From an uncultured Rikenellaceae bacterium (GTDB lineage Bacteria; Bacteroidota; Bacteroidia; Bacteroidales; VadinHA17), in contig CAZQRQ010000006.1 of the NCBI GenBank assembly GCA_964595725.1, positions 22,165-86,164 of the forward strand: 64,000 nucleotides of DNA, in the 5' to 3' direction. Numbering within the stretch: the first letter of the stretch is position 1; every line of letters begins with the position of its first letter. The notes beneath the pieces were generated by a model. The model saw only the letters and a list, made by a program, of their open reading frames with translations, did not search any database and was not told where the DNA came from. A program made the translations under genes and the position numbers. Below are positions 4,265-47,044 of the stretch, in pieces.

Positions 4265-4273
4265 AAGCAGGAT

Positions 4274-7969: not shown

Positions 7970-8130
7970 TGTTGTTTAATTAGAATGCAGTATATCAGTA
8001 TATTAGTGTTTTAAAGGGCTGGCACTAAAGCCTTCCCAAAGATAGCATTTGTTTTTTCTTCTGCGTGCCAGCCAGCTGGTCCTTCATTTTCCTGCTGGTA
8101 AGCTGCTGAGATATCCATGCCTTTATGATG

Positions 8131-23706: not shown

Positions 23707-24163
23707 TTTGCACCTCCTGTTTATTAATTAATTGAACAATTTTGTTTGCTTCTTCCATTACAAGATATGAAATATTTTCTCCGAAATCAATACTAAATGG
23801 CTGAATCCCCAGTATGCAGGAAGGGAACTTGAAGAAGCCCGTCAGTTTGCTGATAGAGATATTATGAGTATTGAATGTAAGGTCCGCTGTCTTACCCGCC
23901 TCAATTAGAGCGCTTTCTCCCGGAGTGGTTTTCATATCCACACAATCTAAGATTACAAGTATATCCGGGTTGATGGAATTTATCTTTCCGAGGTAGTTTT
24001 CAAGGCTAACTTCTACTGTAAGAGATTTTATTCTTACGTTTTCCTTAATTCTGGAACTTATATATACTCCAACGCCGTCATCCTGCCTCAGGACATTTCC
24101 AACTCCCACGAATAAGATTCTTTTCCAGGGACCTCTAAGGAGGTTTTCAAGATCGGCCGACAC
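23696..24163 (-). CDS. [NiFe] hydrogenase maturation endopeptidase (HycI/HybD family)
   Basis: 155 aa. ILFVGVGNVLRQDDGVGV signature, plus conserved Asp (LDCVD) and His (FNTHNIS). Confidence 0.85.
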   Translation of the reverse strand: MSADLENLLRGPWKRILFVGVGNVLRQDDGVGVYISSRIKENVRIKSLTVEVSLENYLGKINSINPDILVILDCVDMKTTPGESALIEAGKTADLTFNTHNISISKLTGFFKFPSCILGIQPFSIDFGENISYLVMEEANKIVQLINKQEVQNGY

Positions 24164-24165
24164 TT

Positions 24166-24795
24166 TTAGATATATTTTACCAGGACAAGCCTTAAACAGT
24201 TAGGGCAAAGAATATTGAACATATCCTTTCTCTTAAGATCATCTTTGATATCCACCTCCACGTCATTGCCTTCGGCCAGCTTCAACCTGTCATTTAGTGT
24301 GTTGAGATTCAGAATTGATGAAAAGGCCTTCGGACCCAGCTTATTGTGAAGATAATTAAGGTGATCGACAGTTGTAATGACAGTGTTGCAGTTTCTGCAT
24401 ACAATGAGTTCCTTTTCCTGTTTTTCTACATTGAGAGAACGATCGAACTGAGCCATATCATAAATCGTGTCCGAAAGTATGACTCCCTTTCCTGTAATAC
24501 AATGTTCCTGGCATTGTCCGCAAAAAATACACTTGCCAAAATCCCTGGTTATTGTCCGTAACCTGTTGACAGGATCATCAATGAATGTAATTGCTTCCGA
24601 AGGACAAACATTGGCACATGTTTCGCATCCCACACAGTTTCCGTCGTCAACAACCGGTTTCCCCCTGAAATCCTTGTATGGGATATGAGGTTTCTTGGGA
24701 AACTTGGAAGTATAGGCAGGTGTTACAAGTGATGTAACAGCCTCTTTGAGCTCTCTTATTTTTGGATATTTCATTTCACCTGGTTTTATAATCAT
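24166..24795 (-). CDS. NuoI/MbhN/HycF-like 2x[4Fe-4S] subunit with a C-terminal CxxC..CxxC extension
   Basis: 209 aa with CVGCETCANVCP and CIFCGQCQEHC, followed by CRNC ... CPNC about 80 aa later. An alternative start at 24774 avoids overlap with the upstream gene. Confidence 0.8.
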   Translation of the reverse strand: MIIKPGEMKYPKIRELKEAVTSLVTPAYTSKFPKKPHIPYKDFRGKPVVDDGNCVGCETCANVCPSEAITFIDDPVNRLRTITRDFGKCIFCGQCQEHCITGKGVILSDTIYDMAQFDRSLNVEKQEKELIVCRNCNTVITTVDHLNYLHNKLGPKAFSSILNLNTLNDRLKLAEGNDVEVDIKDDLKRKDMFNILCPNCLRLVLVKYI

Positions 24796-25087
24796 CCTTC
24801 ACACTCCGGTCGCTCATTTTCACTCCGAAAAGGTAAGTTCCTCTTATCAGTGCATGTGCTGCTACTGTAGAGGTAAAGAAGAGAAGCGGTATTGCAATGA
24901 GGGCCTTCATTCCTCCATTGTTTATACCGAAGTGAAACAGAACCCCGAGCAGAATGCTGCAGGTACCCAGCGTGACACATTTTGTTGCAGCCTGGAGCCT
25001 GTTGTAAACATCAGGCAGACGCAACAATCCTATGCAGCCGAAAATGTTGAACAGTACACCTATGCTTATTAATATTAATGAAACCAT
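24776..25087 (-). CDS. MrpG/MnhG-like antiporter subunit
   Basis: 103 aa. The GCIGLLRLPDVYNRLQAATK motif is typical of MnhG/PhaG. Confidence 0.8.
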   Translation of the reverse strand: MVSLILISIGVLFNIFGCIGLLRLPDVYNRLQAATKCVTLGTCSILLGVLFHFGINNGGMKALIAIPLLFFTSTVAAHALIRGTYLFGVKMSDRSVKDDYKTR

Positions 25088-25088
25088 A

Positions 25089-25355
25089 TCACTCGTTTAG
25101 TTTTTTCCCGCTTAAATATTTTGCCAGCGTGATAGTACCGATGAAGCTCAGTATAATCCAGGCAATACCTATATCAAGAATGAAGGATCTGTCGGTTTGC
25201 ACCGAGATTATAGCACAGATCCCTACAACAAGAATTCCGAAAATATCTATGCCAACCATCCGGTCTGGGATTGTCGGGCCTCTTACGATCCTGTAAAGGC
25301 ATATGGCTGACAAGCCTATAAGGATATAAAGCAGTATATTCAGATAGTCACTCAT
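25089..25355 (-). CDS. MrpF/MnhF-like antiporter subunit
   Basis: 88 aa, 3 TM helices. The YRIVRGPTIPDRMVGID motif is typical of MnhF. Confidence 0.8.
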   Translation of the reverse strand: MSDYLNILLYILIGLSAICLYRIVRGPTIPDRMVGIDIFGILVVGICAIISVQTDRSFILDIGIAWIILSFIGTITLAKYLSGKKLNE

Positions 25356-25837
25356 TCGACAATTTTTTTAATATATTTTTCAAATGCACCCATTATCATC
25401 CCTGTATATACCTCCGGGTCGTCCGAACGGATATATATCCAGTGTATATAAAAATAGTCCCCGATAATATCGACTGTAAGAGTCCCGGGCGTCATAGTGA
25501 TTGAATTGGCTAAAAGTGTTCTTGCAAAGCCTGAAGTAAGGGTTGTCCTTACCTTAACAATTCCAGGTTTTATCGGCATCGCGGGATGAAGAACCCTGTA
25601 TGCAACATCAATATTTGCCTTGATGCATGACCATGTAAACACAAACAGGTAAATAATGAACCAGAAGTACCTGTGAGGTTGAAGGAACTTCTTAACATCA
25701 TGGAAATAATACCTGGCAAATATTAAGGAACATATCAGGGAAGCTATCGCCCCGACAATAATATTTGAGGCCGTGAAACTGAATGTGATCAGCAGCCAGA
25801 ATATAATTCCCAATACAAAAATCGCTATATATCTCAT
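25352..25837 (-). CDS. MrpE/MnhE-like antiporter subunit
   Basis: 161 aa. Two N-terminal TM helices and a soluble C-terminal domain containing the TMTPGTLTVD motif. Its position between the MrpD-like and MrpF-like genes fits. Confidence 0.75.
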   Translation of the reverse strand: MRYIAIFVLGIIFWLLITFSFTASNIIVGAIASLICSLIFARYYFHDVKKFLQPHRYFWFIIYLFVFTWSCIKANIDVAYRVLHPAMPIKPGIVKVRTTLTSGFARTLLANSITMTPGTLTVDIIGDYFYIHWIYIRSDDPEVYTGMIMGAFEKYIKKIVE

Positions 25838-25838
25838 A

Positions 25839-27377
25839 TCACATACCTAGTATTGCCGATGAATAATCACCTGGATTTAACAGTACATTAATTGCAGGGG
25901 TGAGTATATCTTCACGTAATGACGGTATTGCCAGAAGGCTGAGAAGCAGGCACATCAAAGCCATGATTATCATGCTGAATACCATCGGGAACGGAACTTC
26001 CTTAACTTTGCTGCGTTTTGCCTCCTGGTCCTGGTTGTGGAATGCATACCTCTGGAACTTCATGAAAGATGCTAGTGTGATAATGCTTGCCAGGACTGCC
26101 AGTGCAGCAAGAAGATAGAACCTTGCCATTACGGCAGCAATAATAATAATCAGTTTACTGAAAAACCCGTTAAATGGTGGAATTCCTGCTATAGAGAGTG
26201 AGGCAATCATCGATGTTGATGATGTGGCCGGCATAGCTTTTGCCAGGCCTCCCATTTCTTTCAGATCACGGGCACCTGTCGAATACTCTATAGCACCTGC
26301 ATTTAGGAAAAGCAAACCTTTGAAAGCAGCATGGTTGATAAGATGAAAAAGACCTCCTGTAAGTGCAAGAACTGCCACTTCATGCTTTATTCCCTTTGAT
26401 AACAGTATCATGCCCATTCCTGCAGCTAGTACAACATATCCCATTTGGCTTATGCTGTGATAAGCCAGGAGCCTCTTGATATCCCATTGTTCAATAGCCA
26501 GGAAGACACCTATCACCATCGAAACTGCTCCAAGGGTTGTCAAAAGGACTGCCATTGGAGTACTTATCTCGAACATGTTAAAGAATAGCCGTATAATTAC
26601 ATAGATACCTATAGCCTTAATCAATACACCTGAAAGCATGGCTGAAATGGGGGAGGGGGCTGATGAATGGGCGTCAGGAAGCCAGGAATGAAACGGTATT
26701 ATCGCTGCCTTTAGTCCAAAGCCGCTTAGAATCAGTAATTGTACAAAAAGATAATATTTCCTCTCGTAACCTTGAGAGAAGGCTTCCCTGATATCAGCTA
26801 TATTCAGAGTTTTTGCTTTCCAGTAGATAAGGCCTATGCCAAAAAGAATCAGGAAGGATGCCAGTCCCCCGAGAACCTGGTATTTGAAAGTTGCCTCCAG
26901 TTCAGGCTTCTCCACACCAAAAGCAACCAGGGCATAAGAAGAAATAGCTGATATTTCAACAAATACAAAAATATTAAAAATGTCTCCGCTAAGAACTACC
27001 CCGTTCATTCCTGCTATCATAAGACAGAAAAGAGAATAGAAATAATTTCCTGAAGTGTACCGGCTGATATATGAGATGGAGTATATTACAGCCAGGAATC
27101 CGAGTACATTTATAATACAGAGAATGATCACATTAAAGCTGTCGAGAACCATATATATTCCGACAGGTACATTGTTTACAGGTGCCCAGCCCCCAACCCT
27201 GTATACGGAAAACCCTCCTGTATTTCCTGCCAGTGCTGAAACAGAAAGCACAACAAGAGATAAAAGCAGCAGGCTGGCAAGATACTTGTTCAACTCCCTG
27301 AAGAATTTTCCGAGTATCATTATCAGGAAAGCTCCTGCTAATGGTATAACAACAAATAATGGCAACATCGGATTCAT
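25839..27377 (-). CDS. MrpD / NuoM/N-like proton-conducting antiporter subunit
   Basis: 512 aa polytopic membrane protein with complex I antiporter-like motifs (WLPDAHSSAPSPISAMLSG, LAYHSISQMGY). Confidence 0.85.
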   Translation of the reverse strand: MNPMLPLFVVIPLAGAFLIMILGKFFRELNKYLASLLLLSLVVLSVSALAGNTGGFSVYRVGGWAPVNNVPVGIYMVLDSFNVIILCIINVLGFLAVIYSISYISRYTSGNYFYSLFCLMIAGMNGVVLSGDIFNIFVFVEISAISSYALVAFGVEKPELEATFKYQVLGGLASFLILFGIGLIYWKAKTLNIADIREAFSQGYERKYYLFVQLLILSGFGLKAAIIPFHSWLPDAHSSAPSPISAMLSGVLIKAIGIYVIIRLFFNMFEISTPMAVLLTTLGAVSMVIGVFLAIEQWDIKRLLAYHSISQMGYVVLAAGMGMILLSKGIKHEVAVLALTGGLFHLINHAAFKGLLFLNAGAIEYSTGARDLKEMGGLAKAMPATSSTSMIASLSIAGIPPFNGFFSKLIIIIAAVMARFYLLAALAVLASIITLASFMKFQRYAFHNQDQEAKRSKVKEVPFPMVFSMIIMALMCLLLSLLAIPSLREDILTPAINVLLNPGDYSSAILGM

Positions 27378-27380
27378 CTT

Positions 27381-27719
27381 TTACCCTCTTAAGTTTTTAA
27401 TCTCCCTGATATCGAATGTCTTGTATTTTCTGTATATCCTTATTATTACCGCCATAAGCATTGCAGTTGTAGCCAGGCCGATCACAATTGCGGTAAGTAC
27501 AAGTGCCTGCGGAAGCGGATCCACATAGTTCTTTATCGGATCAGACGGATCTACTATTGGGGCAACACCACCTTCCCTGTATCCGATGAGTGCCAGGAAA
27601 AGAAAGGTGCTGAACTCAATGATACTTAGTGATATCACTATCTTAATCAGGTTCCTTCTTGTAAACACGCCGTACAATCCGGTCAGGAACAATATGAAGC
27701 ATAAAATGTAAACTATCAT
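27381..27719 (-). CDS. MrpC / NuoK-like subunit
   Basis: 112 aa, 3 TM helices. NuoK/MnhC-like, with LTAIVIG..A and embedded Glu residues. Confidence 0.8.
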   Translation of the reverse strand: MIVYILCFILFLTGLYGVFTRRNLIKIVISLSIIEFSTFLFLALIGYREGGVAPIVDPSDPIKNYVDPLPQALVLTAIVIGLATTAMLMAVIIRIYRKYKTFDIREIKNLRG

Positions 27720-28153
27720 TTCGACATTTCTTCTTTGAAAATTATGAGAGCAAGGAAGATGGAAAGCACTGATGCTGCTACTTCTATGCCAATAAAAATA
27801 TTATAAAGCGGTAGTGTACCGGCACTGACCAGCTCTCCGGTAACTCCCCTGGGCAGCCAGTTATTGAAGAAAATTCCGGTACCAGCCAGCAGGCCTGCTG
27901 TCGCAATCATTAATGCAATAAGTATTGCCAGGTTCTCTATCAGTGTGGTACCTGTTTCTTCATTTAAAAGTTTAATAAAATCACTTCCAAATGCAAGTAT
28001 CACCAGGATAAATGAACCGGCAAGGATCACACCCCCTGCAAAACCGCCTCCGGGAGTAAGATGCCCGTGCACAATTACATAAATACCGTAAAGAAACACA
28101 AGCCCCGCTATCAGCTGGGTAGTTTTCTTTACTATTACCGTCATCCCTTTCAT
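27716..28153 (-). CDS. MrpB/MnhB-domain subunit
   Basis: 145 aa, 4 TM helices. Has the GHLTPGGGFAGGV motif of the MnhB domain. Confidence 0.75.
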   Translation of the reverse strand: MKGMTVIVKKTTQLIAGLVFLYGIYVIVHGHLTPGGGFAGGVILAGSFILVILAFGSDFIKLLNEETGTTLIENLAILIALMIATAGLLAGTGIFFNNWLPRGVTGELVSAGTLPLYNIFIGIEVAASVLSIFLALIIFKEEMSK

Positions 28154-28172
28154 TTAAGCAGATTTTAAATAA

Positions 28173-28700
28173 TTACTTTTTACCTTTTATCCTTAAAACT
28201 GTCAGTACACCAATAACTGCCGTAACAAGCACCGTAGCCTCTCCCAGAGTATCATAACCCCTGAAGTCAAATATTACTCCTGTAACAAGGTTGGCACTGC
28301 CTGTTTTTGAAGCTGCTCCGTCTATATACGTCTCGGCCATCCTCAGGTTACCTTCCCCGAACGGGGCAAGGGTAGAAGCGGCAGATTTGAAAAAGTATAG
28401 CAGTACAAGGAGGATAAGGACAGCTGATATGGCATTTATGTAGCCCTGCCTGTCAGGTTTTGTGAAAGCCTCCTCACGTGAGCTGTCAAGGACCACGGCA
28501 ACCATTATTACAAGCGAGATAGTCTCCACAACAATCTGTACTATTGCCAGGTCGGGTGCTCTTAGTAAAAGGAAACATATAACGAGTCCGTAGCCCACTA
28601 TACCACCTGATATAACTGCCGAAAGAAGGTCCCTGGCATGAATGGCATAGAGAGCCCCGAAGATCATTAAGACAATTATAACCGAAATAGCCACTTCCAT
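28173..28700 (-). CDS. MbhD/MbhE-like subunit (equivalent to the C-terminal part of MrpA)
   Basis: 175 aa, hydrophobic. It sits between the NuoL-like and MrpB-like genes, where the MrpA C-terminal domains are expected. DUF4040-like pattern. Confidence 0.65.
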
Positions 28701-28715
28701 AGAAGCCTCTTTTAA

Positions 28716-30620
28716 TTATATCATTATCAATAACATTATTATCAAGCCTGCGAATACCCACAGTATGTATCCTGTCAGAACACCGTTATGGGCATCGCTG
28801 AAGATTTTCCCTAACCAGAAAACAAACCTCCTGGAAAGGTCATATACGTCAAACCATTTGCGGTCTGCCTTCCTGTAAAACCAGGAAATCAGCCTGAACT
28901 CATTTACTGTTTTATAGAATTCAGGTGTGGAATAAGATGTCACTTCGCGAAGATCCTCTCCGCCTATAAAGCTGTCATCGGTGCGAAATTTCTTTATTGC
29001 CGTTGAGAGGTAGATGATGATGCCAATTATTATTGATATCAGGACGAGAGCGGATACAGTTATTGAATCCCAGAATCCTGTGAATTCGAATGTGCCTGAT
29101 ATTGGCATAAATAATGCTGGTACAACAAGCCGGGTTGCAAAAATACCTAAGCCAATACACAGGAGTGCCAGAATAACCTGAGGTATCCACATTAAAGGCT
29201 TCACTTCTTTTATTTCCAGAAGTTCCTGCTTTTTACGGCCAAGGAAAATACCTCCCACCAACTTAATAAAGCTTGCCAGTGTAAGAGCAGAGCCAAGCAC
29301 GGCAAGCCCAAGCCATACTATCCATAACTGGTTGGCAATTCCTGTACCATTTCCGAATTCAATTATACCCTGGTAAATCATCCATTTTGATGCAAATCCA
29401 TTGAACGGAGGAACCCCCGAGATAGACATTGCAAACACCAGTGACGCAAAAAAAGTAAACGGCATAGCCTTTGATAATCCTCCCAGGTCCTCTATATTAT
29501 CAATGCCGGTTTGTTGTTCGACAGAACCGGCGGCCAGGAATAAGCCACTTTTATATATTGCATTATTCAGCATATGGAAAAGCCCTGCTGCCACACCTAT
29601 CATCGATCCGAGACCAAAACCGACTATCATATAACCTACCTGTGAAACTGCATGGAATCCCAGCAGCTTCTTGTAGTTATGCTGTACAAGTGCCATCATA
29701 ACAGCTGTTATAATGGTAACAACACCTGTGATAAGAAGTATCAGCTGCATAATATCGGTGAGGATAAATATATTACATGTAATCCTTGCCAAAAAATAGA
29801 TACCAAGCAGTTTATCTAGAGATGCAGGCAGAAAAGCAGTTGAAGATGCAGGTGCCTCCCTGGAGTAGTCAGGAACCCATGTGTGGAATGGGAATGCACC
29901 TGCTTTTGTAAAACTACCGATAAGTAGTGCTATGAATGACGCTATTGCGAGGCCACCGCTTGTGGAGACAGACATTTCGCTCACATTAAATGAACCCGTC
30001 ATCTTCCAGAGTATACCAATCCCAATTATCATGACACTGTCTGATGCGCCGATAAGTATTAGGGTCTTCTTGGCTGCTGCCGAACTATCTTCATCATCAC
30101 CATGGATAAGCCTGTAAAGGGTTATCCCAAGGATGCCCCAGAAGAAAAGGAAGACAAGGAGGTTATCAGAAAGAACAGCTCCTGTTGAACAGCCCAGTGT
30201 GATAAGAAAATATGAGTAGTAGTTCTTAACCCGGTCTTTCTTCTGATATGCAAGCGAATAGAGAAGCATAAGGAATGTGAAAATACTTATGCAAACGACA
30301 ATCAATTTGCTCAACCCGTCACTTCTGAATGATATAAAGTCAGCTGTACCGCTGATTATCCCCTGTTCGCCATTTCCGCTTTTACCCAGTATTTCTGCCA
30401 GTGTTATCGTCTCTGTTTGTGTCCTGAATAAAACCAGTGTGAAGAAAATTGACAATGCACTTATTAACAGTGATGTAATCCCCTTAAGGAGTTTTAGCCT
30501 ATCGGTGATACAGAAAAGGATCATTCCGGTAATTACGGGTATAAGTATGGAACTGGTAATTCCGAAATTCAACATTCCGGCATTCACGGGATCTGTAATT
30601 ATATTAAGCAACTCTGTCAT
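28716..30620 (-). CDS. MrpA N-terminal / NuoL-like antiporter subunit
   Basis: 634 aa polytopic membrane protein with the motifs HTWVPDYSREAPASSTAFL and LGFHAVSQVGYM. Confidence 0.85.
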   Translation of the reverse strand: MTELLNIITDPVNAGMLNFGITSSILIPVITGMILFCITDRLKLLKGITSLLISALSIFFTLVLFRTQTETITLAEILGKSGNGEQGIISGTADFISFRSDGLSKLIVVCISIFTFLMLLYSLAYQKKDRVKNYYSYFLITLGCSTGAVLSDNLLVFLFFWGILGITLYRLIHGDDEDSSAAAKKTLILIGASDSVMIIGIGILWKMTGSFNVSEMSVSTSGGLAIASFIALLIGSFTKAGAFPFHTWVPDYSREAPASSTAFLPASLDKLLGIYFLARITCNIFILTDIMQLILLITGVVTIITAVMMALVQHNYKKLLGFHAVSQVGYMIVGFGLGSMIGVAAGLFHMLNNAIYKSGLFLAAGSVEQQTGIDNIEDLGGLSKAMPFTFFASLVFAMSISGVPPFNGFASKWMIYQGIIEFGNGTGIANQLWIVWLGLAVLGSALTLASFIKLVGGIFLGRKKQELLEIKEVKPLMWIPQVILALLCIGLGIFATRLVVPALFMPISGTFEFTGFWDSITVSALVLISIIIGIIIYLSTAIKKFRTDDSFIGGEDLREVTSYSTPEFYKTVNEFRLISWFYRKADRKWFDVYDLSRRFVFWLGKIFSDAHNGVLTGYILWVFAGLIIMLLIMI

Positions 30621-31822
30621 TTTCTGCTATTATGCTTTTCCATTATTTCTCCGGTTAAAGTGGCCGATGAACTAATAAGCTCATTGGCGTTCATCAGCCT
30701 GACCCCGGAGTTAATATCAAATACAGCAGCCATCCTCTCTGTGCAGCAGTAACATGGATCAACGGCTGCCAGTGAAATGGTGGCATCCGAAATACTCTGG
30801 CCAATGCACGATTTCCGGAAAGTTGCAATATTGACGTAGCTTGGAGCCCTTATTTTATGTCGTGCCGGTGAGTTGGACCCATCCGAGAAGACACAGTGAA
30901 ATACTTCGCCTCTTGGTGCTTCAGCACGCCCCGTTCCCATTCCCTCAGGTATCTCCTTGATCTTAGCAGCTATTTCACCCTCTTTAAGCTTCCTTAAGGC
31001 TGCAAGACACTGTTCTATAATGGAGATCGATTCATACATCTCGAGAAGCCTGACCTCTGCCTTTGCATAGACATCGCCCGTTTCGGCTGTTATTACTTTC
31101 CAGTTAACCAGATCATAAGCTGCATAGGGATCATCTTTCCTGACATCAATAGCCACTCCCGACGCCCTGGCTGTCGGGCCAACAGCTGCATAATCAAGTA
31201 TATCCTGCTTTGTAAGGATGCCGACACCTTTAGTCCTGGCATGAATTACAGGATCATCCATCACAGCTCCCGTCAGCAGGTCTGTCTTTTTCTTAAGTTC
31301 TCCTAGAACTTTTTCCACAGATGGTATTTTGTGTGCTTCTATGTCTCTCCTGACTCCCCCTATCTTGAACATGGCATAGCTGTTCCTGTTTCCTGTTATC
31401 ATTTCGAAAAGTTCAAGCACCGGTTCGCGGTATTTCCATGCCCACATGAAGACCGTATTGTAACCGAGGAAATGTCCGGCCAGCCCAACCCATAGAAGAT
31501 GGCTGTGAATTCTTTCCAGCTCCCCGATTATGGTCCTTATATATTTAGCCCTGTCGGGTATTTCCTCGTTCACTATCTCTTCCACGGCATTGGCGAATGC
31601 GAAAGGGTGGGAGGTGGAGCATATTCCGCAGATCCGCTCTACAAGGAAGAATACCTGGTCATAAGTTTTGGATTCTGAGAGTTTCTCTATACCACGATGG
31701 TTGTATCCTGTTTCCCACTTGATATCCCTGACAATTTCCCCGTCACAGTAAAGTTTGAAAAGTTCAGGCTCTTCCTGCAGTGGGTGATACGGACCGATTG
31801 GTATTAATGTTGGTTTGCTCAT
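30617..31822 (-). CDS. group-4 [NiFe] hydrogenase large (catalytic) subunit, NuoD/MbhL/EchE-like
   Basis: 401 aa. N-terminal ligand motif ERICGICSTSH, C-terminal DPCYCCTER, then a 38-aa tail. Confidence 0.9.
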   Translation of the reverse strand: MSKPTLIPIGPYHPLQEEPELFKLYCDGEIVRDIKWETGYNHRGIEKLSESKTYDQVFFLVERICGICSTSHPFAFANAVEEIVNEEIPDRAKYIRTIIGELERIHSHLLWVGLAGHFLGYNTVFMWAWKYREPVLELFEMITGNRNSYAMFKIGGVRRDIEAHKIPSVEKVLGELKKKTDLLTGAVMDDPVIHARTKGVGILTKQDILDYAAVGPTARASGVAIDVRKDDPYAAYDLVNWKVITAETGDVYAKAEVRLLEMYESISIIEQCLAALRKLKEGEIAAKIKEIPEGMGTGRAEAPRGEVFHCVFSDGSNSPARHKIRAPSYVNIATFRKSCIGQSISDATISLAAVDPCYCCTERMAAVFDINSGVRLMNANELISSSATLTGEIMEKHNSRK

Positions 31823-31830
31823 ACTTCAGA

Positions 31831-32268
31831 TCATTTGAACTCTTTTCTGTAGGGATAAACACCTTCTGCCCAGTTGCCTTCAGAGATAAGCTTCTCCTGG
31901 TTCGGATGGTTTATGAAATCGATGCCGAAAAGTTCATGCATCTCACGTTCTATCCAGTTTGAAGCGTTAAACATGTTAGAAAGAGATTCAATGTGAGGGT
32001 TTTCATGACTCAGCATTACATGTATATTAAGCACCAGCCCCGTCTCGTCCTTGCTGAAATGGTAATGTATCTCGAATCCCGTCCTGGTATGAAGTGCAGA
32101 TGCAATTATGAACCTCAGCCCTGCGTCTTTGTAAAGATGCTCAGCCATGCCTGTAATTGCCTCCGGATTAATAGTTATGGTTACCCTCTTCTCATTTTTC
32201 ACGGCAATATTCAGGATGTAAGCCCTGAACTTCTCTTGAATCTTGTTTATAATCTCTTCCGTATTCAT
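31831..32268 (-). CDS. NuoC/MbhK-like hydrogenase subunit
   Basis: 145 aa with an ANWIEREMHELFGIDF motif (NuoC/30 kDa family). Confidence 0.85.
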   Translation of the reverse strand: MNTEEIINKIQEKFRAYILNIAVKNEKRVTITINPEAITGMAEHLYKDAGLRFIIASALHTRTGFEIHYHFSKDETGLVLNIHVMLSHENPHIESLSNMFNASNWIEREMHELFGIDFINHPNQEKLISEGNWAEGVYPYRKEFK

Positions 32269-32334: not shown

Positions 32335-32745
32335 CTATTTTCCGGCAAGTTTCACTATACCTGCAATTATTGCTTCTGGTTTTGGCGGACACCCCGGAAT
32401 ATATGCATCAACCGGTATTATTTTATCGACTGGACCAGCAAAAACATTTCCCTCGGCAAAGATGCCCCCTGTGCACCCGCAGGCTCCTATTGCAACGACA
32501 AGAACAGGTTTCGGTGCCTGGTTATATATCTCCAGCAGCCTGTCGCGATCGCGCCTGTTAATGGAACCATTTACAAGGAGTACATCGGCATGTCGTACAC
32601 TGCCGACCAGCAATATTCCAAATCTTTCCAGGTCGTGCTTCGGGGTGAGGCAGTCCAGGATCTCGATGTCACAGTTATTACAGGACGCCCCGCCGAAGTG
32701 GAAAATCCAGAGTGATTTTTTGAAGCAATAGCTTTTAAAACCCAC
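32335..32745 (-). CDS. NuoB/MbhJ-like hydrogenase small subunit (proximal 4Fe-4S)
   Basis: 136 aa with the Cys ligands GGASCNNC, GACGCTGG and IPGCPP. Confidence 0.9.
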   Translation of the reverse strand: MGFKSYCFKKSLWIFHFGGASCNNCDIEILDCLTPKHDLERFGILLVGSVRHADVLLVNGSINRRDRDRLLEIYNQAPKPVLVVAIGACGCTGGIFAEGNVFAGPVDKIIPVDAYIPGCPPKPEAIIAGIVKLAGK

Positions 32746-32757: not shown

Positions 32758-33690
32758 TTAATATCCAAATATTATCAACACTATAGCAATCACAGCAAGC
32801 AGATTCATCCATATCATGAAGAAGCTCATTGCCTGTTTTATCTTAAGCCTGGGATTGGTGTTTCTTATAAGAGTCAGAAGCAGCACAATGCCCAGTATCT
32901 TTAACACTGCCCAGAGTATGTTAACACCGGTGAGGTTGATACCATTCATCATCAGAGCAGTAATAAAAGCCGGTAGAATAAAGAACATGATGTACTTTGT
33001 CAGCTTTATTAGTGCGTAGGCAGAACCTGAATACTCAATAAAAGCACCTTCGGTTATTTCAGTTTCAGCCTCAGCCATATCGAACGGAACAAGAGCAAGC
33101 TTAGCCTGTATGCAGAAAACAGCCACAATGAACAGCAGTACGCCTGAAACACTTCCTATGAAAGGAGACCCGTTCTGCTGGGCTTCAATTATACCATTAA
33201 TATCAATATGCTGTCCGGCCTTCATTACAATGCCCGCCACAACCAGGATAAATGTAAGCTCATAGCTGAGGATCAGTTTCATTTCCCTTGATGCCCCTAC
33301 CGCCGCGAGTGGATTGCCTGATGCTAAAGCTCCTATTACATAAGAGAATGATGGTATTGTAAGAAGGTAAAACACGACGAGCACATCTCCTTTAAAACCT
33401 GTTGCAATGTTAAAAAGCGGTAGCAGGATAAAGACAGAAGCCATAGTTGCCCCGAAAAGAGCGAAGATGGGTGCAAGCAGGAAGATCAGGGGTGATCCCT
33501 GTTTTGGCAATATTGTCTCCTTTACCAGCAGCAACTTGAAGAAATCGTAGAATGGCTGTAATATTGGAGGCCCTTTCCTGAACTGGAGCCGCGCTGTTAT
33601 TTTCCTGTCGAACCAGGAGAGAAATCCCCCCGTTATCCCGGAAAATAAGAGACCGGGAAAGACAAGAAAATAAAAGAGATAGGCTGCCAT
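32758..33690 (-). CDS. NuoH/MbhM/HycD-like membrane subunit
   Basis: 310 aa, ~8 TM helices. Motifs RKITARLQFRKGP and PFDMAEAETE, the latter being the NuoH signature. Confidence 0.85.
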   Translation of the reverse strand: MAAYLFYFLVFPGLLFSGITGGFLSWFDRKITARLQFRKGPPILQPFYDFFKLLLVKETILPKQGSPLIFLLAPIFALFGATMASVFILLPLFNIATGFKGDVLVVFYLLTIPSFSYVIGALASGNPLAAVGASREMKLILSYELTFILVVAGIVMKAGQHIDINGIIEAQQNGSPFIGSVSGVLLFIVAVFCIQAKLALVPFDMAEAETEITEGAFIEYSGSAYALIKLTKYIMFFILPAFITALMMNGINLTGVNILWAVLKILGIVLLLTLIRNTNPRLKIKQAMSFFMIWMNLLAVIAIVLIIFGY

Positions 33691-33700: not shown

Positions 33701-34198
33701 TTACTGATTATCCTGTTTATAAATTATATCCTTGACAAGAACCTTATCATTAAGCTTGAAAATGTTTGATCCTGGAGCTTCCCTGGCATCTGTGATTGTA
33801 ACTGTACCCGGGGGACATGCAGCAACAAATTTTTCCATCTCCGACGTATCACTCAGATTGTAAAACAGATCCCTGTTGCGGTGATGACTGAAAAAATCGA
33901 CCATCATTGTCCCGAATGGGCATATTGTAACACACGATTTACACGACACACAGAGATTGGTATAACGATTAATTACACCCTCCTCATCTTTTTCAAGTGC
34001 TTCGGCAGGACATGCAGCTATACATGGAGCATCTTCGCATTTTCTGCATGTATACCTGAAGGTCGCCAGTTCAATGATACTTTTAAGGCCGTTATTGTTA
34101 GGCTGAATGTAGAAAAATCCTTCAGGTAGTTTTCTCTGCGGATTTTCTGCCATTGCTGCCCGAAGCCTTATCATATCTATCAATATCTTTTGCGCCAT
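33701..34198 (-). CDS. HycB-like 2x[4Fe-4S] ferredoxin-domain electron-transfer subunit
   Basis: Motifs CRKCEDAPCIAACP and CVSCKSCVTICP. I chose the start at MAQKILID (34198), 1 nt after the upstream stop. The track start at 34267 would overlap the upstream gene by 68 nt. Confidence 0.75.
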   Translation of the reverse strand: MAQKILIDMIRLRAAMAENPQRKLPEGFFYIQPNNNGLKSIIELATFRYTCRKCEDAPCIAACPAEALEKDEEGVINRYTNLCVSCKSCVTICPFGTMMVDFFSHHRNRDLFYNLSDTSEMEKFVAACPPGTVTITDAREAPGSNIFKLNDKVLVKDIIYKQDNQ

Positions 34199-34199: not shown

Positions 34200-35024
34200 T
34201 CAGTTCCAGATGTTGGGTTGATCCTTAATCTCATCATAGGTAAATACCGGCCCGTCCTTGCAGACAAAGTATTTTCCCATCATGCAGTGTCCGCATTTTC
34301 CAAGTCCGCACGACATGTTTTTCTCCATAGAGAGGTATATATCATGCTCTGGATATCCCATCTGAAGCAATTTCAGAGTTCCAAACTTCATCATTATTGG
34401 CGGGCCGCAGACCACGGCAATAGAGTTATCAATGTCGACTTTAACATCATCAAGCAGCACAGTAACAACCCCGACACGCTCGGTCCAGGTGTCATCCCCT
34501 CTGTCAACGCTCCTCAGTACCTCAAATTTCGGAGTATCGCGGAGTACCGAGATATATGGCTTGTAGATACAATCCTCAGGCGTTTTCGATCCATAACAAA
34601 GAGTTACCTTTCTCAGCTTGTCGGAGATTGCTATAAGCGAATACAGTAATGATCTTATAGGAGCAAATCCGCAACCTCCTCCCAGGATCAGCACCTCCTT
34701 GTCGTAAAATTTCTCAACGGGATATCCTCTCCCGTATGGCCCTCTTATGCCCATATATGATCCCGGCTTCATATTGTGCATGTATTCAGTAACATATCCG
34801 GTCTTCATGATTGTGACCTCAATCGTGTCTTTTACTAGTGGTGATGAAGATGGTGTGAAGGGAGCCTCGCCTATATTTTCAACCGATAATTCAATAAACT
34901 GACCTGTTCCGAACGAAAATTCCTCCTGGGGAGAGAGCACAAAAGTCCTGATCAGAGGTGATTCCTCAATAACGTCTGTCAATTTTGCCCTTATCGGCCT
35001 GTATATGTTCTTTTTATTAGGCAT
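34200..35024 (-). CDS. FNR-fold FAD/NAD(P)-binding protein with C-terminal [2Fe-2S] (sulfhydrogenase gamma / AsrB / PyrK-like)
   Basis: 274 aa. FAD motif APFTPSS, nucleotide motif LILGGGCGFAPI, C-terminal cluster CGLGKCGHCMMGKYFVC. Confidence 0.85.
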   Translation of the reverse strand: MPNKKNIYRPIRAKLTDVIEESPLIRTFVLSPQEEFSFGTGQFIELSVENIGEAPFTPSSSPLVKDTIEVTIMKTGYVTEYMHNMKPGSYMGIRGPYGRGYPVEKFYDKEVLILGGGCGFAPIRSLLYSLIAISDKLRKVTLCYGSKTPEDCIYKPYISVLRDTPKFEVLRSVDRGDDTWTERVGVVTVLLDDVKVDIDNSIAVVCGPPIMMKFGTLKLLQMGYPEHDIYLSMEKNMSCGLGKCGHCMMGKYFVCKDGPVFTYDEIKDQPNIWN

Positions 35025-35030
35025 ATCGGC

Positions 35031-36023
35031 TTATTTTGCCAGTTCCCTGAATATTTCATTTTTGTTGATCCTTCCGATGCATGCTTCAATGCACCTGCCG
35101 CAGCCTGTACAGGCCACTGACCTGAACCGCGCCGGTTTCCATACATACTTGCATTTATACCTGTTCATGAATCTGAGAGATAGCTCATGAAGGGCATCCT
35201 CGCCTCCCGCAACCCTTTCAAATCCCGGATACTGACATGCATCCATCTGCTTGACTTTGTGAAATCCGGGTTTGTCAAGCAGGAGGAAGCAGCTGCAGGT
35301 AGGACAAATGGTCGTGCATGCACCACACGAAACGCATTTGCCGGAGTATTTCTCCCAGACTCCCATACCAGCGTTCTCGACCAGCTTCCCCGTGGCTTTA
35401 TAGTCGGGTAAACCTGTATTGGAAGCATTCAGGAGCACCCCGACTTCCTTTCTTTTCTTGTCTATATATGCTTCAATATCACGGTCATTCATGATATTAA
35501 CACCTTCAAGCCGTTGTATCAGCGCTGCACCTTTATCAGAAATATCCCTGAGGATCACAGAACCATTGTACAGAATTACCGAGATATCAGCATTTCTTTC
35601 AGCAAATGGACTAATACCATATGCAGTACAGTGGCAATGTTCCTGAATATTAAAACAATCAGTTGAGATTATCAGCGTGTTTTCCCTTCTGTTCCTGTAA
35701 AAGATATCCTCAAAAGTATCATCAAGATATATCTCGTCAAGAATATTCAAAGCCTCAACATCACAATTGGGAACTCCAATTATTATCCTGGGCCTGTCCC
35801 CTTTGGGAAGGGACGATACATTTTCCTTGACAGGCAGGAAAAAGCTCTTGAGAGGAGTAACGGGCTTTGCCTTATTATAACTTATTTCGGCTATATTTAC
35901 CGATGACAGGATCTGATAATCTTGAGTATTTCCGTTATTTACCGAAGCATAAATCAGGAAATCTCCGGTCAGACCTTCCAGATTCCTATCCCATTTCTCC
36001 CTATTAATTATATGATATTTCAT
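35031..36023 (-). CDS. 4Fe-4S dicluster protein (sulfhydrogenase beta / AsrA-like), first gene of the hydrogenase operon
   Basis: 330 aa with CVSCGACTTICPTCSCF and CTGCGRCIEAC, plus additional Cys (CHCTAYG). Confidence 0.8.
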   Translation of the reverse strand: MKYHIINREKWDRNLEGLTGDFLIYASVNNGNTQDYQILSSVNIAEISYNKAKPVTPLKSFFLPVKENVSSLPKGDRPRIIIGVPNCDVEALNILDEIYLDDTFEDIFYRNRRENTLIISTDCFNIQEHCHCTAYGISPFAERNADISVILYNGSVILRDISDKGAALIQRLEGVNIMNDRDIEAYIDKKRKEVGVLLNASNTGLPDYKATGKLVENAGMGVWEKYSGKCVSCGACTTICPTCSCFLLLDKPGFHKVKQMDACQYPGFERVAGGEDALHELSLRFMNRYKCKYVWKPARFRSVACTGCGRCIEACIGRINKNEIFRELAK

Positions 36024-36025: not shown

Positions 36026-36043
36026 ATGTGAGAAGTATCACAT
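36026..36043. promoter_or_regulatory. Rex-type operator candidate 1 (ATGTGAGAAGTATCACAT)
   Basis: Perfect TGTGA-N6-TCACA palindrome 3 nt upstream of the ATG of the first hydrogenase-operon gene. It resembles the Rex consensus TTGTGAAnnnnTTCACAA. Confidence 0.55.
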
Positions 36044-36210: not shown

Positions 36211-36228
36211 ATGTGAAACAAATCACAA
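36211..36228. promoter_or_regulatory. Rex-type operator candidate 2 (ATGTGAAACAAATCACAA)
   Basis: TGTGAA-N4-(A)TCACAA palindrome with 2 mismatches to the 14 specified consensus positions. It overlaps the GTG start (36213) of rex itself. Confidence 0.6.
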
Positions 36229-36893
36229 AATATGTAATCAAGAACAGCCTGAAGAGGATATTCCTTTACCGGTCGAGTCTTCTGAGGCTGAAGAAAATGG
36301 GAGTACAAAGGATCTTCTCTTATACCCTGGCAAATGAAACAGGAGTGACACCGGACCAGGTTAGAAAGGATTTTTCTGAATTTGGGATCAGGGGAAATAA
36401 GAGAGGCGGTTATGAGATTGATGATCTTCTGCATGCGATGGAAGACATATTTCACAGAAACAAGGACAATAACATAGTGCTTATCGGCATGGGAAACCTC
36501 GGCCAGGCCCTTTCAAAGTACAGCAGGTTCGTTCAGCGGAACATGAATATCGTTGCCACATTCGATATAGACCCTTTTAAACAGAAGATGAGATCGGGTA
36601 TGCCTGTGTATAATATGAGCAGGCTTAAAGAAATAGTTGACAGGTTTAAGGTAAGGGTTGCCATACTGGCCGTGCCTGAAATCTCTGCACAGGAGGTCGC
36701 CGATGAGGTGATAAAATACGGTATCAAGGGTATAATAAATTTTGCCCCGGTGCTTCTGAAAGTACCGGGCGACATAGTCGTAAATAACGTAAACCTGTGT
36801 GATGAGCTGGAGAGCGTCATCTACTATGTGCATCATATCCTCAAAGCCGACGGTCTTAAAAACATAAGTATATTATACGGGGATACGAAATAA
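36213..36893 (+). CDS. rex: redox-sensing transcriptional repressor Rex
   Basis: 226 aa. N-terminal winged-helix region (LKRIFLYRSSLLRL..VTPDQVRKDFSEFGIRGNKRGGYEI) and a Rossmann NAD(H) domain (IVLIGMGNLGQAL). GTG start: no in-frame ATG lies upstream before a stop. Confidence 0.9.
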   Translation: MKQITKYVIKNSLKRIFLYRSSLLRLKKMGVQRIFSYTLANETGVTPDQVRKDFSEFGIRGNKRGGYEIDDLLHAMEDIFHRNKDNNIVLIGMGNLGQALSKYSRFVQRNMNIVATFDIDPFKQKMRSGMPVYNMSRLKEIVDRFKVRVAILAVPEISAQEVADEVIKYGIKGIINFAPVLLKVPGDIVVNNVNLCDELESVIYYVHHILKADGLKNISILYGDTK

Positions 36894-39136
36894 TGATAAA
36901 AGGGCTGGTTCAGGGGGTCGGTTTCCGGCCTTTTATTTACAGGCTGGCAACAAACTACCACCTGAAAGGTGAAGTTGATAACAGGACAAATGGAGTTTTG
37001 ATTTCAGTTGAAGGGGAAGAAGAGAATGTTTTCCTGTTCAGGGATGCTGTTCTTAATTCAGCGCCAGCGGCTTCTCAGATAAAATCTGTTGATGTAAGGG
37101 AAAAGAAACTTGCGGGATTTACAACCTTTGAAATAGTACGGAGCCGTGACGATCTGAACCAGATCACTGAAATAAGCCCTGATATAGCTGTTTGTGATGA
37201 GTGTATATCGGATATGACCAATGATGAGAACAGGAAAGACTATCCATTTATAAATTGCACAAACTGCGGTCCCAGGTTTTCAATTATCGAAGGATTGCCT
37301 TACGATCGTGAAATGACCTCAATGAAAGTATTTCCGATGTGCCCTGACTGTGAAAAGGAGTATAATGATATTTCCGACAGGAGATTTCATGCCCAGCCGA
37401 TAGCATGCAATAAATGCGGTCCGGCTTATTCTTACACAGATACCGAAAGGTCGGCAGAAAGAATCAGTGAAATACTGGATTTGATAGCTTTAAGGATCAA
37501 CAGGGGAGAAGCTGTGGCAATCAAGGGATTAGGCGGATATAACCTCGTATGTGATGCCCTGAATGAAAATGCCGTGCATGAGCTGAGATTAAGGAAACAA
37601 AGAGATGCCAAGCCATTTGCTGTAATGTTCCGTGATATTGAGGCAGCAGGGGAGTTCTGTCATCTGACAAAAGAGGAGAGACAATCACTGGAATCATGGA
37701 AAAGACCTATCGTCATACTGGATCAGATGAAATCACTGGCTCCATCTGTGAATAATGGTCTGAATACCGTAGGAGCAATGCTGCCTTACCTGCCTCTTCA
37801 CTACCAGATATTTAAGAAGACAGATACTCCGGCAATAGTACTTACTAGTGGTAATCTCTCTGATGAACCTATTATTATCGATGATGATATAGCTTTTAAG
37901 AAGCTGATGCCTGTTGCCGGGGCTGTTGTGACAAATAACAGGGCGATTGTGAACAGGTGTGATGATTCCGTCATCAGATATTACGATAAGAAACCAGGGA
38001 TGATAAGAAGATCAAGAGGATTCGTACCATCTCCCATTGATCTTAAGATGAATGCAGATGGTATACTGGCTCTGGGGGCCGAGCAAAAAAACACTTTTAC
38101 CATAGGAAGGGATAACCAGGCGATTATGAGCCAGTATATTGGTGATCTCAAAAACTATCCCGCTTATACATTCCTATGTGAGGCTGTTGACAGGTTCAGG
38201 AAGATGTTTCTCTTTGAACCTGCAATGATTGCATGTGACCTTCATCCTGATTATCTTTCTACCTCACATGCCAGGCTTCTTGAAGAGCAACTCGGAATAC
38301 CGCTTGTAAAGGTCCAGCACCATCATGCACACATTGCGTCATGCATGGCTGAACAAAGCCTGGACGAGGAAGTAATTGGTATATGCCTTGATGGTACAGG
38401 CTTCGGAGCCGATGGTAATACCTGGGGCAGTGAATTCTTCAGAGCTGGTCTTTCCGGTTATACAAGGTTGACGCATTTTGATTATATCCCGTTACCGGGA
38501 GGTGATAAGGCGGTTGATGAACCATGGCGAATGGCTGTCTCATATATTTATAAGTATTTTGGCAAAGCATTTAACTACCAATCGGTTCCCTCGCTGAAAC
38601 AAATACCGGATGATAAGATAGCCCTGGTGATCGAGATGATTGAAAAAGGTATTAATACACCGCTTACATCAGGAGCAGGCCGGCTTTTTGATGCTGTATC
38701 AGTGATCACGGGTCTTTGTATTGAGTCTGCCTTTGACTCGGAGGCACCTATGCGTCTTGAATCCATTGCTGATCCCAAGGTCAGGGATCATTATCCTTTC
38801 AGGTTGGGTGAGTGTATTGTCTTCTCAGACACTATAAAAGCTGTTATGGAAGACCTGGGAAAAGCTGATGTGGCGGTTATTGCAGCTAGGTTTCACAACA
38901 CGGTTGCTGAAGCCATTGTCCAGACCGCCATTAAGATTCGTGAAAGTACTTACCTGAACAATGTTGTGCTGTCAGGAGGGGTCTTCCAGAACAGGTATCT
39001 GCTTGAGAGGTGCCTGGGAATGCTTGAAAAAAATAACTTTATAATCAATACCAACAGGCTAGTACCGGCAAATGACGGGGGAATTTCCCTGGGCCAGCTT
39101 GCTGTGGCATCAAAAATCAGAGAATTATGTGTCTGA
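36893..39136 (+). CDS. hypF: [NiFe] hydrogenase maturation carbamoyltransferase HypF
   Basis: 747 aa. Acylphosphatase motif VQGVGFRP, two Zn-finger pairs (CDEC..CTNCGPR, CPDC..CNKCGP), and YrdC-like and Kae1-like domains. The start overlaps the rex stop (TAATG). Confidence 0.95.
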   Translation: MIKGLVQGVGFRPFIYRLATNYHLKGEVDNRTNGVLISVEGEEENVFLFRDAVLNSAPAASQIKSVDVREKKLAGFTTFEIVRSRDDLNQITEISPDIAVCDECISDMTNDENRKDYPFINCTNCGPRFSIIEGLPYDREMTSMKVFPMCPDCEKEYNDISDRRFHAQPIACNKCGPAYSYTDTERSAERISEILDLIALRINRGEAVAIKGLGGYNLVCDALNENAVHELRLRKQRDAKPFAVMFRDIEAAGEFCHLTKEERQSLESWKRPIVILDQMKSLAPSVNNGLNTVGAMLPYLPLHYQIFKKTDTPAIVLTSGNLSDEPIIIDDDIAFKKLMPVAGAVVTNNRAIVNRCDDSVIRYYDKKPGMIRRSRGFVPSPIDLKMNADGILALGAEQKNTFTIGRDNQAIMSQYIGDLKNYPAYTFLCEAVDRFRKMFLFEPAMIACDLHPDYLSTSHARLLEEQLGIPLVKVQHHHAHIASCMAEQSLDEEVIGICLDGTGFGADGNTWGSEFFRAGLSGYTRLTHFDYIPLPGGDKAVDEPWRMAVSYIYKYFGKAFNYQSVPSLKQIPDDKIALVIEMIEKGINTPLTSGAGRLFDAVSVITGLCIESAFDSEAPMRLESIADPKVRDHYPFRLGECIVFSDTIKAVMEDLGKADVAVIAARFHNTVAEAIVQTAIKIRESTYLNNVVLSGGVFQNRYLLERCLGMLEKNNFIINTNRLVPANDGGISLGQLAVASKIRELCV

Positions 39137-45388: not shown

Positions 45389-45856
45389 ATGTATCACGTT
45401 GGAAATCTGGTAAAGGAGCTGACTGAAAAGCATGGAAGGACCAGGGAAAGCCTGATGCCAATCCTGCAGGGTATAGTGAGCAAGCATAATTACCTTACTG
45501 ATGAAGCCATGGTCGAGATTGCAAAAGAGCTTGACATATCTGCAGCAGAGGTTTACGGGACAGCATCCTTCTACACATTCCTCGACACGATTCCGAGGGG
45601 AAAGTATATTATTAGGGTATGCAAAACGATAACATGTTCCATGAAGGGGAAAAATGATATTCTTCAGACTATTGAGGATATGTTGAAGATCAAGGTGGGA
45701 CAGACAACCTCGGATAACCAGTTCAGCTTGCTGGAGACCAATTGTATAGGATGGTGCCACAAGGCTCCTGCTATACTTATAAATGAAATACCTTATACCG
45801 AGCTGACTACGGAGAAGGTAGTGGAGATTATCAAAGGTTATATGCAAAACATTTAA
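45389..45856 (+). CDS. NuoE/HydC-like [2Fe-2S] thioredoxin-fold subunit
   Basis: 155 aa with Cys ligands CKTITC and CIGWCH. First gene of the [FeFe] hydrogenase operon. Confidence 0.85.
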   Translation: MYHVGNLVKELTEKHGRTRESLMPILQGIVSKHNYLTDEAMVEIAKELDISAAEVYGTASFYTFLDTIPRGKYIIRVCKTITCSMKGKNDILQTIEDMLKIKVGQTTSDNQFSLLETNCIGWCHKAPAILINEIPYTELTTEKVVEIIKGYMQNI

Positions 45857-45869
45857 TACCAGGACAGAC

Positions 45870-47030: not shown

Positions 47031-47044
47031 AACAAGAAGACATC

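Follow-up and report, generated by a model that had tools for sequence, protein, structure and literature searches.

A sulfhydrogenase-type beta/gamma gene pair heads a Hun-type group 4 [NiFe] hydrogenase operon in an uncultured Bacteroidales bacterium

The window analyzed here is a stretch of 64,000 nucleotides (nt) from contig CAZQRQ010000006.1 (positions 22,165 to 86,164) of an uncultured Rikenellaceae bacterium of the order Bacteroidales. It contains two adjacent genes, separated by 6 nt, that encode a 330-amino-acid (aa) FeS protein and a 274-aa flavoprotein, and that we refer to as hunA-like and hunB-like. An earlier note on this DNA, made from its letters alone, had reported both open reading frames (ORFs) at the positions where we find them, on the minus strand (Table 1), and had read the pair as an electron-transfer module at the head of a hydrogenase operon, in spite of its resemblance to subunits A and B of anaerobic sulfite reductase (AsrA and AsrB). 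The pair does head such an operon, with an Mrp-linked group 4 [NiFe] hydrogenase lying 3' of it. The operon comprises 18 genes: a block of 16 running from position 36023 down to 24166, lettered hunA to hunP here by gene order, followed by hycI and one further ORF, with downstream gaps of a few nt.

The Pfam domain matches of both proteins lie far beyond chance. The hunA-like product carries a Fer4_22 dicluster domain (7e-20), and the hunB-like product combines FAD_binding_6, NAD_binding_1 and the PyrK-type 2Fe-2S domain DHODB_Fe-S_bind. Searches with NCBIfam hidden Markov models (HMMs) returned 137 bits for ShyB, 116 for HydB and 116.1 for AsrA with the hunA-like product, and 208 bits for PRK08345 ('hydrogenase gamma'), 207.4 for AsrB, 175 for ShyC, 160 for HydG and 157 for PyrK with the hunB-like product, all of them below the curated cut-offs. 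The AsrA score amounts to about one third of its equivalog cut-off (116 of 323 bits, TIGR02910) and the AsrB score to about 70% (207 of 288.6 bits, TIGR02911), while the group 3b beta and gamma equivalogs (NF040829/NF040833 and NF040830/NF040835), with cut-offs of 600–750 bits, were matched at 137 and 116 bits (beta) and at 175 and 160 bits (gamma). Since every score falls short of its cut-off, the two proteins are best described as members of the AsrA/HydB and AsrB/HydG superfamilies that belong to none of the named equivalogs.

Among all PDB sequences, the best matches were the beta and gamma subunits of Pyrococcus furiosus sulfhydrogenase I (SH1): 9nez_B for the hunA-like product (3.7e-31, residues 8–319) and 9nez_C for the hunB-like product (4.5e-47, residues 32–272), in near-full-length alignments in which the cysteines and nucleotide motifs line up. 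These full-length matches to solved subunits settle the predicted folds of both proteins, in agreement with the suggestion that they share the two folds of archaeal sulfhydrogenase beta and gamma. The hunA-like gene is present in one copy in the genome, and 16 cysteines of its product are invariant or nearly so in an alignment with 22 relatives. The expectation that automated annotation would call the pair AsrA and AsrB held for papers using KEGG-style names, which do write asrA/asrB. It did not hold for current pipelines, in which the first protein appears as a 'sulfhydrogenase subunit beta', a 'ferredoxin' or a '4Fe-4S dicluster domain-containing protein'; the automatic name given by the Joint Genome Institute (JGI) is 'sulfhydrogenase subunit beta (sulfur reductase)'.

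The arrangement of the operon corresponds to a published system. A 16-subunit 'Hun' Ni-Fe hydrogenase-Na+/H+ antiporter supercomplex has been defined in which HunAB are AsrA/AsrB-like but have no AsrC partner, an FeS protein serves as HunC, and HunG, classed in HydDB group 4g, carries CGIC ... CYCC in place of CGIC ... CxxC (Glass et al., 2021; 10.1101/536078). Matched by published gene order, signature and description, with group 4g taken from the class given to HunG in that work, the window operon is a further Bacteroidales example of this already described Hun-type group 4g hydrogenase. It shows the same 16-gene core order, with a NuoH/L-like proton module and an Mrp-like Na+ module, its AsrA/AsrB-like HunAB are followed by the FeS protein HunC without any AsrC, and its hunG-like large subunit carries the CGIC ... 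CYCC signature (RICGICSTSH and DPCYCCTER). All four Ni-Fe cysteines are present in this subunit, and DPCYCCTER recurs in 16 of the 17 complete large-subunit homologues from Hun-context loci. Its best PDB match is the membrane-bound hydrogenase (MBH) of P. furiosus (6cfw_L, 8.9e-82), followed by HycE of the Escherichia coli formate hydrogenlyase (FHL), with 7z0s also among the matches. Reported carriers of Hun include Atribacteria, Omnitrophica, Elusimicrobia, Bacteroidetes and Kosmotoga isolates, and HdrA-MvhAGD co-occurs with Hun in Atribacteria (10.1101/536078); an HdrA/Mvh-type hydrogenase is likewise encoded in the window's genome, on contig C37. The window operon differs from the published supercomplex in having two additional genes at its 3' end, hycI and an ORF of 137 aa, and in lying divergent from rex and hypF with two Rex boxes, a feature absent from the paper's description. 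A related arrangement, with cooF, asrA and asrB beside Mrp-Mbh genes, has been reported in Saganbacteria (Matheus Carnevali et al., 2019; PMC6349859).

The linkage between the pair and the membrane-bound hydrogenase is conserved. The divergent arrangement of hypF-rex and beta-gamma-HunC-MbhM-J-K-L-H-Mrp was found in 8 of 8 related Bacteroidales genomes. A metagenome scan with the alignment of 22 relatives yielded the 80 nearest loci, in which ORFs were called and clustered with the window proteins as seeds, other large clusters being named by Pfam. In the Mbh-linked group, all 28 loci with enough downstream sequence present beta-gamma-HunC and then Mbh/Mrp genes, a linkage kept even where beta is only ~30–35% identical to that of the window, and the hunC-like gene directly follows gamma in Hun-context loci apart from inserted ORFs in some. 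A further 25, more distant loci show a (HdrA-MvhD-)FrhB-like-beta-gamma order instead, and in three loci beta and gamma precede a 3b-type small and large subunit (DPCISCSxH).

We performed phylogenetic inference on both proteins of the pair. True AsrAB and HydBG were compared through HMM scores and, within the trees, through 3b-like metagenome stand-ins, and P. furiosus HydB/HydG through PDB alignments. In the beta tree (76 sequences, IQ-TREE LG+C20), the 28 Mbh-context rows and 10 short-contig rows make up one side of a split with a Shimodaira–Hasegawa-like approximate likelihood ratio test (SH-aLRT) support of 100, with every FrhB/Hdr, 3b-like or other context on the opposite side. When 124 cluster representatives from a search of 1.8 billion proteins were added, 97 entered the Mbh clan, with no other-context row inside it (FastTree support 95). 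For gamma, with PyrK/NfnA-like paralogs from the window's genome as the root, 27 Mbh rows and 4 short rows fall into one clade (SH-aLRT 94), and both the beta and the gamma of the 3b-like loci fall outside the Hun clan. The occurrence of an Mbh-linked clan in both trees indicates that the pair joined a group 4 hydrogenase once and stayed. The earlier note had singled out recruitment to a membrane-bound hydrogenase as the unusual part; the recruitment is real, as seen in 28 of 28 readable contexts, but it is not new, since it defines the published Hun supercomplex.

The hunA-like gene is rare among sampled reference Bacteroidota, where only 1 of 400 genomes besides that of the window carries it at E <=1e-40. 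It is common in metagenomes, 1388 homologues having been recovered from a 90%-clustered database, the best ones being mostly Bacteroidales-like. The few organism-named members of the homologue clusters belong to Spirochaetota, Omnitrophota, Patescibacteria and Planctomycetota. A sister family of the Hun beta and gamma proteins occurs in a conserved (NuoF-)HdrA-MvhD-FrhB-like-beta-gamma cluster (L055, L060, L062, L065, L070, L072, L077, L079, L082-L084, L087-L089, L091, L092, L094, L096-L100), often near a histidine kinase, response regulators and NuoE/NuoF, and resembles a soluble, NAD(P)H-linked complex of the Hdr/Flx-like kind.

Several Hun loci carry insertions. Some close Bacteroidales relatives have a small insert between hunB and hunC, which the window is without: an extra ORF in L025 (175 aa) and L026 (151 aa), and a gap of ~520 nt in L014 and L021. 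A longer ORF of ~540 aa (542 aa) lies between gamma and hunC in L049, L052 and L058, its sole Pfam match being a weak one to Molydop_binding (5e-4). It probably corresponds to the molybdopterin-like gene found between HunB and HunC in some genomes (10.1101/536078), there described as a molybdopterin domain protein, and to the molybdopterin oxidoreductase that the Saganbacteria paper describes as unclassifiable; this ORF is absent from the window and from all close relatives. In L048, a distant Hun locus, another, incomplete group of Mbh-like genes (NuoC-, NuoD- and NuoH-like, ~4000–9900) lies immediately 5' of the Hun operon.

Table 1. Features of the hun-like operon and its divergent neighbors, in window positions.
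Feature	Position	Strand	Product or description	Basis
hunA-like	35031..36023	minus	330-aa multi-[4Fe-4S] protein, sulfhydrogenase beta / AsrA family	
hunB-like	34200..35024	minus	274-aa FAD/NAD(P)/[2Fe-2S] flavoprotein, sulfhydrogenase gamma/AsrB/PyrK fold	
hunC-like	33701..34198	minus	165-aa 2x[4Fe-4S] connector ferredoxin, HycB/CooF/HydN-like	Fer4_11
hunD (by order)	32758..33690	minus	MbhM/NuoH-like membrane subunit	PF00146, 4.6e-64
hunE (by order)	32335..32745	minus	MbhJ/NuoB-like small subunit	PF01058, 1.7e-31
hunF (by order)	31831..32268	minus	MbhK/NuoC-like subunit	PF00329, 1.2e-22
hunG-like	30617..31822	minus	401-aa NuoD-like [NiFe] large subunit; RICGICSTSH, DPCYCCTER, C-terminal tail	PF00346 + PF00374
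Antiporter-like membrane module (whole)	24776..30620	minus		Pfam
MbhH/NuoL-like subunit	28716-30620	minus		Pfam
MbhD/E (MrpA-tail-like)	28173-28700	minus		Pfam
MnhB	27716-28153	minus		Pfam
MnhC/NuoK	27381-27719	minus		Pfam
MnhD	25839-27377	minus		Pfam
MnhE	25352-25837	minus		Pfam
MrpF	25089-25355	minus		Pfam
MnhG	24776-25087	minus		Pfam
hunP (by order)	24166..24795	minus	NuoI/MbhN-like 2x[4Fe-4S] subunit	Fer4 families
hycI	23696-24163	minus	HycI-type maturation endopeptidase	PF01750
137-aa ORF	23293-23706	minus	Two CxxC pairs; last of operon, overlaps hycI	
Rex-type operator	36027..36042		TGTGA-N6-TCACA, 3 nt 5' of hunA start codon	Predicted from sequence
Second Rex-type operator	36212..36227		TGTGA-N6-TCACA, overlaps rex start	Predicted from sequence
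rex	36213-36893	plus	Divergent	Put_DNA-bind_N + CoA_binding
hypF	36893-39136	plus	Divergent, followed by more hyp genes	HypF domains

The hunC-like gene likely starts at the ATG at position 34198, 1 nt past the hunB-like stop. The 137-aa ORF at the end of the operon returned no significant Pfam family, and may encode a zinc-ribbon maturation accessory protein. Three further ORFs of 155, 386 and 593 aa lie on the plus strand ~10 kb from the Hun operon (45389-48826).

The absence of an AsrC gene beside the pair, which had been remarked upon in the earlier note, extends to the whole genome (3.54 Mb, 97.6% complete). A search for asrC with TIGR02912 returned only ferredoxin-motif matches of at most 26 bits, and the NIR_SIR domain (PF01077) had no match in the genome, while the same search was positive in 11 of 14 control genomes. 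The 80 related metagenome loci contained neither an AsrC-like neighbor nor a bona fide AsrA/AsrB, and AsrA above cut-off was absent from all 401 Bacteroidota genomes sampled. Of these genomes, 131 hold AsrA-family paralogs, one or two each and all below the cut-off (120–170 bits), mostly in one family with 2–3 Mb genomes (86 of 87), which suggests that 'AsrA-like' genes without true Asr function are common in Bacteroidota. The only other [NiFe] enzyme in the window's genome is encoded on contig C37 (L106:3196-12106), where a HycI-like protease, a response regulator, MvhD, a small subunit (MvhG), a 487-aa large subunit (MvhA), two HdrA-like proteins and an FeS protein form a cluster resembling Mvh/Hdr (group 3c). 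As this cluster has electron-transfer subunits of its own, the pair does not serve an orphan soluble hydrogenase; nor are its own partners of the soluble 3b type with a DPCxSCxxH-type L2 motif, being group 4 subunits with DPCYCCTER. Taken together, the lack of AsrC or any siroheme domain in the genome, the conserved Mbh/Mrp linkage and the likeness to SH1 beta and gamma indicate that the pair is almost certainly a Hun-type electron-transfer module (HunA/HunB) and not a sulfite reductase; the earlier note had likewise preferred an electron-transfer module to a sulfite reductase.

Inspection of the spacer between the hun operon and rex revealed putative sites for redox control. The motif TGTGA-N6-TCACA has two matches in the window, where 0.04 would be expected, and both fall within the 189-nt hunA/rex spacer. 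A Rex box is present at the same place in 6 of the 8 related genome loci and in 7 metagenome loci. The shorter core proved the informative pattern, the strict 18-bp Rex consensus having a single, unrelated match. In a second, distant Hun lineage (L043, L046 and L059), rex also adjoins the Hun operon. Rex derepresses its targets at high NADH, which fits an NADH-consuming, H2-evolving role for the operon.

Cofactor motifs and homology to solved enzymes suggest a path for the electrons. NAD(P)H would bind at the FNR-type site of HunB and pass a hydride to flavin adenine dinucleotide (FAD), from which single electrons would reach the [2Fe-2S] cluster and be relayed through the [4Fe-4S] clusters of HunA. 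HunC, with two predicted clusters, would bridge HunA to the NuoI-like subunit (two clusters), from which electrons would pass through the NuoB-like subunit (one cluster) to the Ni-Fe site of the large subunit and there reduce protons to H2, the NuoH/NuoL/Mrp-like membrane arm coupling this reaction to H+/Na+ movement. The result would be a complex-I-like machine with a sulfhydrogenase-type beta/gamma arm in place of NuoEFG and a Ni-Fe site in place of the quinone site, switched on through Rex at high NADH/NAD+ and thus providing a sink for NADH. Reduced ferredoxin may enter the same chain. Donor, direction and ion coupling are all inferred.

On balance, it appears somewhat probable that HunA and HunB constitute the distal arm, on the cytoplasmic side, of an Mrp-linked group 4 hydrogenase of the Hun type, NAD(P)H link included. 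We favor NAD(P)H as the donor in view of the conserved flavin and NAD(P) motifs and of the Rex operators on either side of the promoter region. The flavin motif PFTPSSSP, the nucleotide motifs GGGxGxAP and CGPPxMM and the 2Fe-2S cysteines are all at least 95% conserved in 27 divergent Hun gammas, and the SH1 gamma to which HunB is homologous contains the NADPH site. A HycB/CooF-like connector behind a dedicated dehydrogenase is the design of FHL and of CO-dependent hydrogenases, and the placement of the connector, together with motif conservation and the Rex boxes, favors the prediction of a live nucleotide site in HunB. That Hun enzymes are, more specifically, energy-conserving NADH:proton oxidoreductases, analogues of complex I in which a beta/gamma arm replaced or preceded NuoEFG and protons stand in for quinone, is a tentative extension that we regard as possible but rather doubtful.

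Several observations weigh against NAD(P)H as the donor. With an E0' of -320 mV for NADH and -414 mV for H2, the reaction is uphill at standard conditions (1 bar H2) and, given the conserved coupling polarity of the family, would not allow simultaneous ion export unless H2 were extremely low. At 0.1–1 Pa H2, the H+/H2 couple lies at about -240 to -270 mV and some tens of mV are left, which would suffice for roughly one ion per H2 at most; NADH-driven ion pumping would consequently be restricted to very low H2 (~0.1–1 Pa), which fits the sediment and digester habitats of the operon. In the relatives characterized so far, electrons flowing to the catalytic site are, as far as is known, always coupled to the export of ions, so a gradient-driven NADH-to-H2 mode seems unlikely; the enzyme would have to operate at very low H2, or else draw much of its driving force from ferredoxin. 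Since ferredoxin-dependent hydrogenases of other bacteria are under Rex control too, the Rex boxes do not tell which donor is used. The stretch YGSKTPED, which follows the second strand in the NAD domain of HunB, aligns to a segment with an acidic residue that is also present in the NADPH-using SH1 gamma, so that the sequence is compatible with NADH as well as NADPH. The predicted association of HunA and HunB with the membrane complex is drawn from the invariant linkage of their genes. The literature searched held no biochemical study of any Hun enzyme. The HydDB entry for group 4g reads 'ferredoxin-coupled (putative), undetermined role', and ferredoxin has been proposed as the donor to HunABC (10.1101/536078). 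A description of the atribacterial complex as taking electrons 'from ferredoxin or NADH', by contrast, allows NADH as the donor (Bird et al., 2019; PMC6469976).

The tight energetics of NADH leave substantial weight to strict ferredoxin dependence, the published reading (Glass et al., 2021), under which HunABC would lengthen the FeS wire of an MBH-like enzyme passing electrons from reduced ferredoxin to H2 with ion export, and the nucleotide site of HunB would be vestigial, regulatory or a side outlet making NAD(P)H from ferredoxin electrons. This reading agrees with the putative HydDB label for group 4g, with the closeness of the hunG-like core to the ferredoxin-dependent MBH (6cfw_L) and with the retention of a NuoI/MbhN-like subunit in the Hun operon. 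In MBH that subunit docks ferredoxin, and ferredoxin at about -450 to -500 mV could power H2 formation plus pumping. However, the HunB flavin and NAD(P) motifs remain at least 95% conserved across lineages in which beta is ~30% identical, which argues that the site is not vestigial. Likewise, MBH accepts ferredoxin without beta, gamma or HunC, and the maintenance in 28 of 28 contexts of three extra subunits that MBH-type ferredoxin uptake would make superfluous points to an added function. Uptake of ferredoxin by AsrAB is moreover itself an assumption, AsrB having originally been predicted as an NADH-oxidizing flavoprotein. We consider strict ferredoxin dependence rather unlikely.

It is far less probable that the beta/gamma arm reduces elemental sulfur, polysulfide or another soluble acceptor, coupled to H2 or ferredoxin oxidation. 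The pair is homologous to sulfhydrogenase beta and gamma, for which sulfur-reductase activity has been reported, its automatic JGI name mentions a sulfur reductase, a molybdopterin-like ORF separates gamma from hunC in some relatives, and possible reduction of sulfur compounds has been raised for the atribacterial complex (PMC6469976). Nonetheless, the operon contains no sulfur-handling gene, the molybdopterin-like ORF is missing both here and in every close relative, and the Rex boxes and hyp linkage suit NADH/H2 balance. Nor is sulfur reduction considered the physiological role of sulfhydrogenase. The remaining alternative, that these are true AsrA and AsrB proteins with a distant or unassembled AsrC and an incidental hydrogenase neighbor, has next to no probability and is already close to refuted, for although the AsrA and AsrB models do match the pair (116 and 207 bits) and ~2.4% of the genome is perhaps unassembled, both scores stop well short of 323 and 288.6 bits, the genome holds no AsrC over cut-off and no NIR_SIR domain, an AsrC-like neighbor is absent from 80 of 80 related loci, the Mbh linkage is invariant and the sampled Bacteroidota contain no true AsrA.

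Annotation and metabolic models currently assign such pairs to sulfite reductase, to a sulfur-reducing sulfhydrogenase or to unspecified ferredoxins, and usually model the attached hydrogenase as ferredoxin-driven. The present analysis says instead that Hun-type membrane hydrogenases recruited the pair once and have kept it as a fixed component, with its nucleotide site under strong constraint, and the choice between NAD(P)H and ferredoxin as the donor concerns the whole Hun family. If the donor is NAD(P)H, models of redox balance and energy yield would change for many uncultured anaerobes of sediments and digesters, among them Bacteroidales such as that of the window and, from the carriers in the Hun paper, Atribacteria, Omnitrophica and Elusimicrobia; Hun would also represent a second, independent way to couple nicotinamide oxidation to a complex-I-type pump. 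Should Hun enzymes prove to be NADH:proton oxidoreductases, fermenters could pump ions at sub-pascal H2 while shedding NADH as H2 under direct Rex control, and the label 'ferredoxin-coupled (putative)' would be wrong for this part of group 4g.

Compared with known systems, the pair resembles the AsrABC enzymes of the Salmonella/Clostridium type in being recognized by the AsrA and AsrB models, in its domain composition and in the A-then-B gene order, but it is without an AsrC/siroheme subunit in locus or genome, and its downstream partners are hydrogenase subunits. With the group 3b SH1 of P. furiosus it has in common the FAD/NAD(P)/2Fe-2S layout of gamma and the position of the beta and gamma genes ahead of the hydrogenase genes; its partner, however, is a membrane-bound group 4 enzyme with Mrp subunits and not a soluble delta/alpha dimer, and Hun has HunC as an additional connector ferredoxin. 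The core and Mrp-like subunits of Hun are homologous to those of P. furiosus MBH (group 4d, 6cfw), which is without any dedicated donor module. The FHL and CO-dependent hydrogenases (groups 4a-c) show the same order of dehydrogenase, HycB/CooF-like ferredoxin, NuoI-like subunit, NuoB-like subunit and Ni-Fe site, with FdhF or CooS as the dedicated module where Hun has an NAD(P)-type flavoprotein and a poly-FeS protein. Fdh3 of Thermococcus onnurineus was considered as a comparator and dropped, its NAD(P) subunit being modeled on NfnI and not HydG-like. Finally, Hun contains subunits homologous to NuoB, C, D, H, I, K and L/M/N of complex I and, should NAD(P)H be the donor, its peripheral arm would likewise begin at a nicotinamide-oxidizing flavoprotein. 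That arm is not homologous to NuoEFG, having an FNR/PyrK fold with FAD where NuoF has a flavin mononucleotide (FMN) fold, and it leads to a terminal Ni-Fe site that would reduce protons instead of quinone.

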